DNA of 32,000 nt from Promethearchaeia archaeon (lineage in GTDB: Archaea > Asgardarchaeota > Lokiarchaeia > Sigyniarchaeales > SOKP01), in NCBI GenBank assembly GCA_046497275.1, contig JAWOFX010000089.1:30001-62000 (forward strand). Direction: 5' to 3'. The first letter of the stretch is position 1, and the number at the start of each line of letters is the position of its first letter. The notes below the pieces were generated by a model that searched no databases, had not been told where the DNA came from, and saw only the letters and a list, made by a program, of their open reading frames with translations. Positions 17,882 to 21,212 of the stretch are shown here, one piece after another. The position numbers and the translations under genes are program-made.

Positions 17882-18658
17882 ATGAAGAGTCTTTTAATTG
17901 CTGGAGGTGGCAAATTCGGTAAGAAAGCCATCGATTATGCTAAAAAATTAAAATATAGAACAATTTTAATTGATAGAGATCCAAACTGCTATGCATCCAA
18001 CCAAATTCAAAAAAAATATGAGAGTTTAGATAATTTAACAAAAGATTTTAAAGAATTTAATGAGGAAAAGATCTTATTTTTGAATGAAGATATTTCTATT
18101 ATCTATGAATTAATCAAAAACTTTCATTTTGAATATATTATTCCTGTTGTACCAATACATTTAACATCTTTAATTGTGAAATTATGTTTAAATTCATTAG
18201 GTGTAAATTTAGAACCTGATAGTAAAAGGATTAATTATTATATTGATAAGATTGAACCAGAACTTCTTTTAAATTATAATAAAGATGCAGGTTTAATTTA
18301 TTTATCTTATGCTAAAATCGACGAAATTTGTCCTGATGACTGTCCAGGACCTCCTAATTACTGCCCAAATTTTAAAAGAGAAAAACCGATTACAATCACA
18401 AATTATGTAAAGAAATTTTTCGAAACTCAAAAAATGATCGAAATTTCGAAAAAGAAAAAGTTTGCTAATTTTTTGCTTGAAAGTTATCAATTGATGGCAG
18501 GGCTTGGTGGATTGAAAGGCAATGAATTAAAAGAGGTGGTAGAAAAAATTCAGAAAAATAAGAATTCTTTTATATCAAATAAATATGAAATAAGAGTCGC
18601 TACTACATGCAATTGTCATGGAATAATTAGTTTTCTGAAAAGTGAATTAATTCAATGA
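17882..18658 (+). CDS. Uncharacterised protein with N-terminal NAD-binding Rossmann motif and Cys clusters
   Basis: LLIAGGGKFG (GxGxxG) followed by ILIDRD, internal CPDDCPGPPNYCP and terminal TTCNCHG. Starts 40 nt after meaB. Confidence 0.72.
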   Translation: MKSLLIAGGGKFGKKAIDYAKKLKYRTILIDRDPNCYASNQIQKKYESLDNLTKDFKEFNEEKILFLNEDISIIYELIKNFHFEYIIPVVPIHLTSLIVKLCLNSLGVNLEPDSKRINYYIDKIEPELLLNYNKDAGLIYLSYAKIDEICPDDCPGPPNYCPNFKREKPITITNYVKKFFETQKMIEISKKKKFANFLLESYQLMAGLGGLKGNELKEVVEKIQKNKNSFISNKYEIRVATTCNCHGIISFLKSELIQ

Positions 18659-18741: not shown

Positions 18742-19188
18742 CTATTTTCTAAATAAATTGATACGAAGATCAAATTGTTTAGCACTATTAGGACAATTTG
18801 ATTCACAACAACCCGGTATATAAGAATAAACATCAAAATTATCAATGGGAACAAGAAGATACATCAAAGAATTAACAAGAGAACAAGAGTGATTAATCTC
18901 TTCTAAAGGTCCATCACATAGCGCAGTTTTATGTTCTTTTTTATTCACATAAATACATAATCCATCCTTAGGATAAAAACCAAATAAGTATTGGAATTTT
19001 GGGATTATTGGATATTTCTCAGTTTCTACTTTTCTTTCATATGTTTTTTCAATATTATTAAAAGAAAGAGTGAATTCTAATGCTTTATAAGAATCATTTT
19101 CTTTATCTTGATCTGTGATTTTGTGAATAATAAAATCCTTAGAAACAGCTTGATCAATTAAGTTTTCTAATTTTTGATCTAACATCAT
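18742..19188 (-). CDS. Hypothetical protein (Cys-rich C-terminus)
   Basis: 148 aa ORF starting 1 nt after the stop of 19190-19462; contains CCESNC. No family recognised. Confidence 0.62.
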   Translation of the reverse strand: MMLDQKLENLIDQAVSKDFIIHKITDQDKENDSYKALEFTLSFNNIEKTYERKVETEKYPIIPKFQYLFGFYPKDGLCIYVNKKEHKTALCDGPLEEINHSCSLVNSLMYLLVPIDNFDVYSYIPGCCESNCPNSAKQFDLRINLFRK

Positions 19189-19189
19189 T

Positions 19190-19462
19190 TTAAATCTTTA
19201 ATATCTTATCTTCTTTTGGGTCTATCCATTCAGAATAAATCTCAAGAATTAAGGAATTGCTTTTTTTTTCGCATTTGGGACATTTCTCATCAGTTAGTTT
19301 TTTAAATGTATAATCTCCCTTTTGAAATGGTCGAGTATATTTTTCCTTACATTCTCCACATTGGATTACGGAATATACTTTTTGGATAAATCTGTCTTTT
19401 CTATCAAGAATGTCCCCAATCGCTGGAATCGGAGGTAAGTCAGGTTCTTCACTCATTATCAA
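19190..19462 (-). CDS. Small zinc-ribbon protein
   Basis: CGEC...RPFQKGDY...CPKC: two CxxC pairs, resembling small archaeal Zn-ribbon proteins. Confidence 0.75.
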   Translation of the reverse strand: MIMSEEPDLPPIPAIGDILDRKDRFIQKVYSVIQCGECKEKYTRPFQKGDYTFKKLTDEKCPKCEKKSNSLILEIYSEWIDPKEDKILKI

Positions 19463-20033: not shown

Positions 20034-21212
20034 ATGAATTCCAAAGAACTTGTAAAAGCAGCATTATACTTTGAGTCTCCAGAAAGAGTCCCATTTTTCA
20101 AAGATGTGAGAGGAGATGTGTGTTTTTTGATTCTTCAACCATCACAAAGTTGGAGACCGGGTTGGAAAGAAGGAGAAGAGGGTCTATTTCCACATGTAAG
20201 GACTAATTATAAATGGGAGAAGCCAGATTGGGCAATAAACAGTTCGATAACTGAAAATGAGAAATGGAGTGAAATCCCTCATGAGGAAATCGATGAATGG
20301 GGTTGTATTTGGAATATGAGAGGTAAAGATGACAATATGGGACATCCCGGACGACCTATTCTTGAGAATTGGAGAGAATATGATAATTATATTGAAAAAT
20401 ATTATCCTGACCCTTGGGATGAGACAAGATATGAATTTGCTCTTAAATTAAAAGAATCATTTGGGAAAGATAAATATCTTATGGGGCTTATTGCTGATTT
20501 TGGTCCATTTCAAAGATCAACGAACATACGAGGATTCTCAAACTTTCTAATAGATCATAAAAAAAACCCAGAAATGGTTAAAAAGCTCTTAAATTATGTA
20601 AATGATTGGCATATTGAAACCATGAAAGCATGTTTTAAATATGGATTAGATCCTGATGGATTCGAGATAATCGATGATTTAGGAGAACAATCTGATCCAT
20701 TTTTTAGTCCGAAAACGTTCAAAGAATTTTATGCTCCTATTTATAAAAAATTATGTGATGAGGCTCATAGTCTAGGAACCGAAGTTCATTTACATTGCTG
20801 TGGAAAAGTCGATAAAATTTTACCTATTTTAATAGATTGTGGACTGGATGCTATAGAGTTTGATAGTCCAAGAATGACTGGGTATAAAGATCTTAAACCT
20901 TTTAGAGGAAAGATAATGATATGGGGGTGTGTAAATATTCAATCGATTTATACGAAAGGAACACCAGATTTAGTAGAACGAGAGGTCTGGCATATGGTGC
21001 GTAATTTAGGAACAAAAGAGGGAGGATATGGAGCATATTTTTATCCTACTCCAACAGACTTAAAAGTACCTCCTAAAAATATAAAAGCTTTTCAACGAGG
21101 GTTGAAAAAATATGGGAATTATACTGAAATTCCAGAACATTGGTGGGAATACCCTGTCTCTGAAGAATGGGGCTTTCTTGAGGTTCCTCCACTTCCACCT
21201 CTTAAAAAATAA
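20034..21212 (+). CDS. Uroporphyrinogen decarboxylase/MtaA-CmuA superfamily protein
   Basis: IDEWGCIW, RGFSNFLID, IIDDLG, FFSPKTFKEFYAP, HLHCCG and WGCVNIQ motifs typical of URO-D-like barrels. Confidence 0.85.
   Translation: MNSKELVKAALYFESPERVPFFKDVRGDVCFLILQPSQSWRPGWKEGEEGLFPHVRTNYKWEKPDWAINSSITENEKWSEIPHEEIDEWGCIWNMRGKDDNMGHPGRPILENWREYDNYIEKYYPDPWDETRYEFALKLKESFGKDKYLMGLIADFGPFQRSTNIRGFSNFLIDHKKNPEMVKKLLNYVNDWHIETMKACFKYGLDPDGFEIIDDLGEQSDPFFSPKTFKEFYAPIYKKLCDEAHSLGTEVHLHCCGKVDKILPILIDCGLDAIEFDSPRMTGYKDLKPFRGKIMIWGCVNIQSIYTKGTPDLVEREVWHMVRNLGTKEGGYGAYFYPTPTDLKVPPKNIKAFQRGLKKYGNYTEIPEHWWEYPVSEEWGFLEVPPLPPLKK

Follow-up and report, generated by a model that had tools for sequence, protein, structure and literature searches.

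A PF27252-family protein encoded behind mutase and meaB genes in a Lokiarchaeial genome as a candidate for general cobamide processing

The window considered here is a stretch of 32,000 nucleotides from a Promethearchaeia archaeon (contig JAWOFX010000089.1, positions 30,001 to 62,000), and it contains a run of four co-oriented genes that code for the large and small subunits of an acyl-CoA mutase, the GTPase chaperone MeaB and a protein here called X (Table 1). An initial annotation had placed X fourth in this run, 40 nt past meaB, which ends at 17841. Both its open reading frame and its position were confirmed, as were the motifs GGGKFG, IDRD (aa 30-33), CPDDCPGPPNYC and TCNCHG; across 429 family sequences, conservation is 92-100% for GxGxxG...Asp, five cysteines and two histidines. 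In the gap between meaB and X, a scan of the sigma-70 type, which is weak for archaea, gave no promoter signal above chance, a terminator was looked for on the + strand and none was found, and an Rfam search of the window had no match.

Table 1. Coordinates of X, its motifs and the genes discussed with it (positions in the window unless a locus is named).
Feature	Position	Strand	Remarks
Acyl-CoA mutase large subunit	14768..16408	+	Phe76/Gln194, not the methylmalonyl-CoA mutase signature
Mutase small subunit, B12-binding	16423..16824	+	
MeaB GTPase chaperone	16834..17841	+	PF03308 and TIGR00750 above cut-off
X, AF_1314-family (PF27252) protein	17882..18658	+	258 aa, ATG start; Rossmann-like N-domain and Cys/His C-domain
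GxGxxG loop (GGGKFG, aa 8-13, nt 17903) to Asp31	17903..17974	+	Predicted nucleotide-binding fingerprint; 97-99% conserved
P88-x-x-P91-x-H93	18143..18160	+	End of N-domain; 92-97% conserved
Cysteine loop C150-x3-C154-x6-C161, CPDDCPGPPNYC, aa 150-161 (nt 18329)	18329..18364	+	100% conserved
Hairpin motif T241-x-C243-x-C245-H246-G247	18602..18622	+	95-99% conserved; contains TCNCHG, aa 242-247 (nt 18605)
Asparagine-synthase-like and anthranilate-phosphoribosyltransferase-like genes	L250:7875-8747, L269:10621-11598, L203:231-1082, L203:1942-3012, L260:4247-5224		

The mutase upstream of X is without the methylmalonyl-CoA signature, as its Phe76 and Gln194 stand at the Tyr and Arg positions of methylmalonyl-CoA mutase (Tyr89/Arg207 positions), and its best match among solved structures is 2-hydroxyisobutyryl-CoA mutase. 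The Phe/Gln pair, which we take to be isobutyryl-CoA-mutase-like, is in line with the isobutyryl-CoA mutase signature named at the outset. X shares its position near meaB with the methylmalonyl-CoA epimerase of archaeal mutase operons, but the epimerase belongs to the VOC family, whereas X gave no VOC match and is Rossmann-like in its N-domain. Elsewhere in the window, a radical SAM gene (MSMEG_0568-like, below the cut-off), which many Lokiarchaeia carry ahead of the mutase, is found at 12498-14509, together with an opposite-strand DUF166 gene at the place where relatives often carry cobA. The region 18742-19462 on the minus strand encodes a Cys-containing protein of 148 aa, without a family match and seen in X-carrying loci only, and a Zn-ribbon-like protein of 90 aa that occurs near meaB with or without X. 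A UroD/MtaA-like protein, one of 11 in the host genome, is encoded at 20034-21212, and part of the window stretch is contained in salt-lake RNA runs.

Profile searches of X against NCBIfam and a Pfam copy without the PF27252 model returned only sub-threshold N-terminal matches, and no sequence relative of X was found in the PDB. Membership in PF27252 (AF_1314_C) came from a precomputed match on the sequence cluster of X, a feature score of 0.95 and a model TM of 0.78-0.86, and both hallmarks of the family, the CX3CX5-6C loop and the CxCH motif, are present. The family comprises 532 clusters at 50% identity from archaea and anaerobic bacteria, its domain is carried by nearly all of the 114 homologs found for X, and the named homologs are mostly from Promethearchaeota/Lokiarchaeota, which puts the host genome in Lokiarchaeia. 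Across the 429 family sequences, a set that includes redundancy, G8, G10, G13, D31, S142, C150, C154, C161, C243, C245 and H246 reach 97-100% conservation and H93 reaches 92%, with P88, P91, G209, T241 and G247 also in the conserved set; given this conservation, the motifs of X are beyond chance. No paper was found under PF27252 or the locus name AF_1314. X had been put forward as the best candidate in the window for an undescribed system. Its family has no described function but is a catalogued one, so that X is no orphan, and what is new here is the link to B12.

The structural model of X is confident (pLDDT 95), and its N-domain is about as close to NAD-binding as to RCK and pre-ATP-grasp domains (Z 6-8.4), in agreement with the Rossmann fold first suspected from the sequence. 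Within this Rossmann-like fold, X has both the GxGxxG loop and an acidic residue that ends strand 2. The C-domain was modelled at pLDDT 96.8 and has no clear structural match, the best among 48,161 chains reaching Z 3.2, while Foldseek gave nothing at E 0.001 and the Atlas nothing usable beyond the family; this is no proof of a new fold. A tally of 118/251 is made up mostly of weak Rossmann matches, 21 being of full length. Foldseek matches to E1 enzymes, at a TM of about 0.26, were set aside as Rossmann-only noise. Judged from the conserved GxGxxG...Asp and Cys/His sites, the N-domain is likely to bind a nucleotide and the Cys/His residues a metal, in line with the nucleotide and metal or Fe-S binding predicted initially.

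In the host's order, X lies directly after meaB in 23 of the 30 other carriers, across three families, within about 5 kb of it in five and unlinked in two. The stop of meaB and the start of X touch or overlap in several carriers, which favours co-transcription and bears out the operon membership of X. Within the host family, the orthologous meaB accompanies X in each of the 19 carriers. X was not found in 71 of the 90 genomes of that family with this meaB, several of them 98-100% complete, nor in two large genera (0/50 and 0/40 genomes) or in most B12-using Lokiarchaeia, and 13 X-negative loci of the host family retain this mutase operon (77-82% identity), with no X and no cobA adjoining it. 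About 14 genomes of the order, nearly all of them carriers of X, have cobA in front of the mutase, and none of the 13 X-negative loci has it there; the gene order in many carriers is cobA-mutase-meaB-X, so the ancestral operon was probably cobA-large-small-meaB-X. This association of X with a mutase operon represents one lineage, and was counted as one observation. Outside the order, no mutase subunits were found near X homologs, be it at 80 bacterial loci, at other Asgard loci or at archaeal and metagenome loci beyond Loki. X is dispensable for the mutase and not its obligatory partner.

The host genome itself has three mutase large subunits and two meaB genes. No adenosyltransferase of the CobA/CobO or PduO type was found in its assembly (98.9% complete), and since CobA is present in 5 of 6 congeners, the absence of CobA from the host may be an assembly gap. 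CobS and PduO were found neither in the host nor in its genus, and CobT, CbiB and CbiZ had no match in the host genome. A btuFCD-like ABC transporter adjoins cbiM/Q/O-like genes on host contig C136 (23000-29900), and this is likely the corrinoid or cobalt uptake locus of the host; in five genomes compared, the presence of FecCD did not separate carriers of X from non-carriers.

Beyond the host's order, homologs of X are found within clusters for B12 uptake and salvage. In operons of the type btuFCD-cbiB-cobD-cobT-cobS-cobC(-cobU), the Dehalococcoidia have X between btuD on one side and cbiB or cbiZ on the other, either before or after cbiZ, with the layout riboswitch-btuFCD-X-cbiZ/cbiB-cobD-cobT-cobS. 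In the Ignisphaera cluster, X heads btuF-btuF-btuC-btuD and the divergent partner is cobT-cbiZ-cobY-cobD-cobS-cbiB, while a separate bacterial clade, in which X is found as the first gene behind a cobalamin riboswitch, shows the arrangements X-btuB and btuF-X-btuB-DUF71. Five loci from two clades (L254, L245, L246, L250 and L269) have a same-strand cobalamin riboswitch (RF00174) upstream, with X as the first gene, 199 nt downstream, in L254; none was found in sixteen further bacterial loci. Other neighbours of X are RACo, MtaA-like, MtrH and corrinoid proteins, as well as cobT, cbiZ and PgpA-like genes. In a quick tree, the B12 contexts are spread over separate clades, and unrelated contexts lie in between. 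Of two homologs picked blind to context, P0210 lies 670 nt from btuFCD-DUF71-cobS and the second 2.9 kb from a corrinoid protein, and three picked blind earlier had no corrinoid gene closer than a RACo gene about 6 kb off.

A corrinoid gene occurs within 4 kb of X in 18 of 98 dereplicated non-Loki groups, compared with 4 of 80 control tiles and 24 of 401 tiles from the same genomes. This is an enrichment of only 3-4 fold with nominal p values of 0.01 and 0.0003, respectively, which are inflated by seed choice and relatedness. The seeds came from the same loci, the controls were imperfectly matched, and the BtuF/C/B families also carry iron. These neighbourhoods sustain the link to B12 that the initial annotation had drawn from the position of X after meaB. 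They also argue against the downstream acyl-CoA redox chemistry offered there as one role, since the wider neighbours are uptake, salvage and methyltransferase genes.

A general role in B12 handling is probable for X, which makes a better candidate for general cobamide processing than for an accessory factor of the mutase. Common to the uptake, adenosyltransferase-mutase and methyltransferase clusters would be an intact or nearly intact cobamide that needs reduction and the loss of its upper ligand before it can be used. Our preferred reading, put forward tentatively, makes X a soluble protein by which anaerobes process cobamides for any B12 client that a given genome encodes. The ligands, substrate and chemistry we infer for it amount to a possible mechanism, in which a nucleotide- and metal-dependent cobalt reduction or removal of the upper ligand would precede adenosylation. 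Once a cobamide has been imported, the N-domain would bind NAD(H) or another adenine nucleotide, and C150, C154, C161, C243 and C245, with H246 and H93, would hold a metal or Fe-S centre. X would then reduce the cobalt and/or strip the upper ligand, and the resulting Co(II) cobamide could pass to CobA, to CbiZ/CbiB remodelling or to the corrinoid proteins of methyltransferases. In the host's order, X in the cobA-mutase-meaB-X operon would be part of a cofactor supply kit. A nucleotide-binding domain combined with a Cys5/His2 site would be fitting for a reductase or an enzyme that takes off ligands, and cysteine-mediated decyanation has a precedent in BtuM (PMC8123684). Speaking against this reading are the absence of X from most B12-using Lokiarchaeia, the large share of contexts free of corrinoid genes and the N-domain, whose likeness to pre-ATP-grasp domains of the non-NAD kind is just as close.

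Several other explanations have to be weighed against this one. If X were a housekeeping protein of anaerobes with a general redox or metal function, unrelated to B12 and only sometimes near B12 genes, this would account for the fact that about 80% of independent X contexts have no corrinoid gene within 4 kb and that the commonest Desulfobacterales context is unrelated to B12. It would also fit with the Lokiarchaeia, where synteny is conserved for unrelated genes nearby as well, among them grpE, dnaK and the gene of a small Zn protein. This is unlikely all the same, as salvage clusters in three or more separate clades have X within the operon, and X also follows immediately on cobalamin riboswitches. 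The role proposed initially, that of an accessory or repair factor dedicated to the Phe/Gln mutase and MeaB, draws on the 23 carriers with X directly after meaB and on the constant presence of this meaB in host-family carriers. We consider it very improbable, given the many relatives with meaB, several of them near-complete, from which X is missing, the operon left intact at all 13 X-negative loci examined and the lack of mutase subunits near homologs outside the order.

It is also rather improbable, though somewhat less so, that X has the nucleotide loop or the lower ligand as its target, with a pre-ATP-grasp-like domain that would bind a ribonucleotide phosphate, for example alpha-ribazole phosphate, during remodelling. 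The best Pfam match of X is PF22660 (E 0.0012, below the cut-off), the N-domains of PurT/PurK match X at Z 6.4-7.3, and cobT, cbiZ and PgpA-like genes are among its neighbours; ATP-grasp models align to the whole of X at a TM of 0.41-0.43, a likeness limited to the N-domain. Against this, the host keeps X without CobS, CobT, CbiB or CbiZ having been found, and its genus likewise without CobS, which points away from nucleotide-loop assembly, and the occurrence of X alongside cbiZ rules out a simple replacement of CbiZ. Of similarly low probability is a non-catalytic cobamide carrier or sensor, in which His246 or a cysteine would be a cobalt ligand and an RCK-like domain would read adenine nucleotides. 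Weak TrkA_N matches in several homologs and the variety of clients served are in keeping with such a protein, as is the fusion of the family domain to a sigma-54 activator in one protein of the fusion search (L312:6001-7368), but that fusion is a single record that may be an assembly artefact, and five invariant cysteines, two histidines and an invariant serine resemble a catalytic or redox site.

The step proposed for a soluble cobamide-processing X is the one at which BtuM, CblC, CobR, PduS and RACo act. PduS and RACo, a corrinoid reductase and an activator, belong to the same preparatory step. BtuM and CblC, which process the upper ligand, and the corrinoid reductase CobR prepare the cobamide for adenosylation or loading (PMC8123684, PMC12713380), and even for M. 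tuberculosis, decyanation is a step that is still undetermined (PMC12713380). X has no Pfam, NCBIfam or PDB sequence match to any of the five. Of these, BtuM is a membrane protein, flavin is used by CobR and CblC, and RACo is an ATPase of the ASKHA type. The evidence for X is of the same type as that for the DUF71-B12 subfamily, which was recognised by clustering with btuCDF and cbiB (PMC3541065). DUF71, a PP-loop ATPase predicted to replace CbiZ, adjoins X in L214, L246, L260, L269 and L313; X is unrelated to it in sequence and co-occurs with both.

How imported cobamides are made ready for adenosylation or loading is poorly assigned in anaerobic B12 scavengers, and PF27252, a small soluble family with more than 500 clusters and invariant residues, is a candidate for this step in Asgard archaea, Dehalococcoidia, Thermoprotei and sulfate reducers. 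If true, this would give a function to an unannotated family. That PF27252 as a whole is an undescribed class of soluble enzymes that reduce cobamides or remove their upper ligand in anaerobic archaea and bacteria, that holds a Cys5/His2 metal centre in a domain unlike solved structures and that feeds adenosyltransferases, remodelling enzymes and methyltransferases, is conceivable but somewhat doubtful. What the window adds is the mutase-operon context, the dispensability test and the co-pattern with cobA.

Some further neighbours of X recur. At L144:4019-6606 and about 20 Desulfobacterales loci, X is divergent from a run with queH (confirmed by Pfam), in which further genes are maf- and yggS-like by eye. 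QueH is the B12-independent counterpart of QueG, and the placement of this run beside X is possibly a coincidence. Next to X, unrelated lineages repeatedly have asparagine-synthase-like and anthranilate-phosphoribosyltransferase-like genes, in some cases inside B12 clusters (Table 1), and these could be further salvage genes. Lastly, the B12 transporter has a related radical SAM gene at its side in clusters of both the Ignisphaera type and Dehalococcoidia (L247:9736-10527 and L269:2679-3419).
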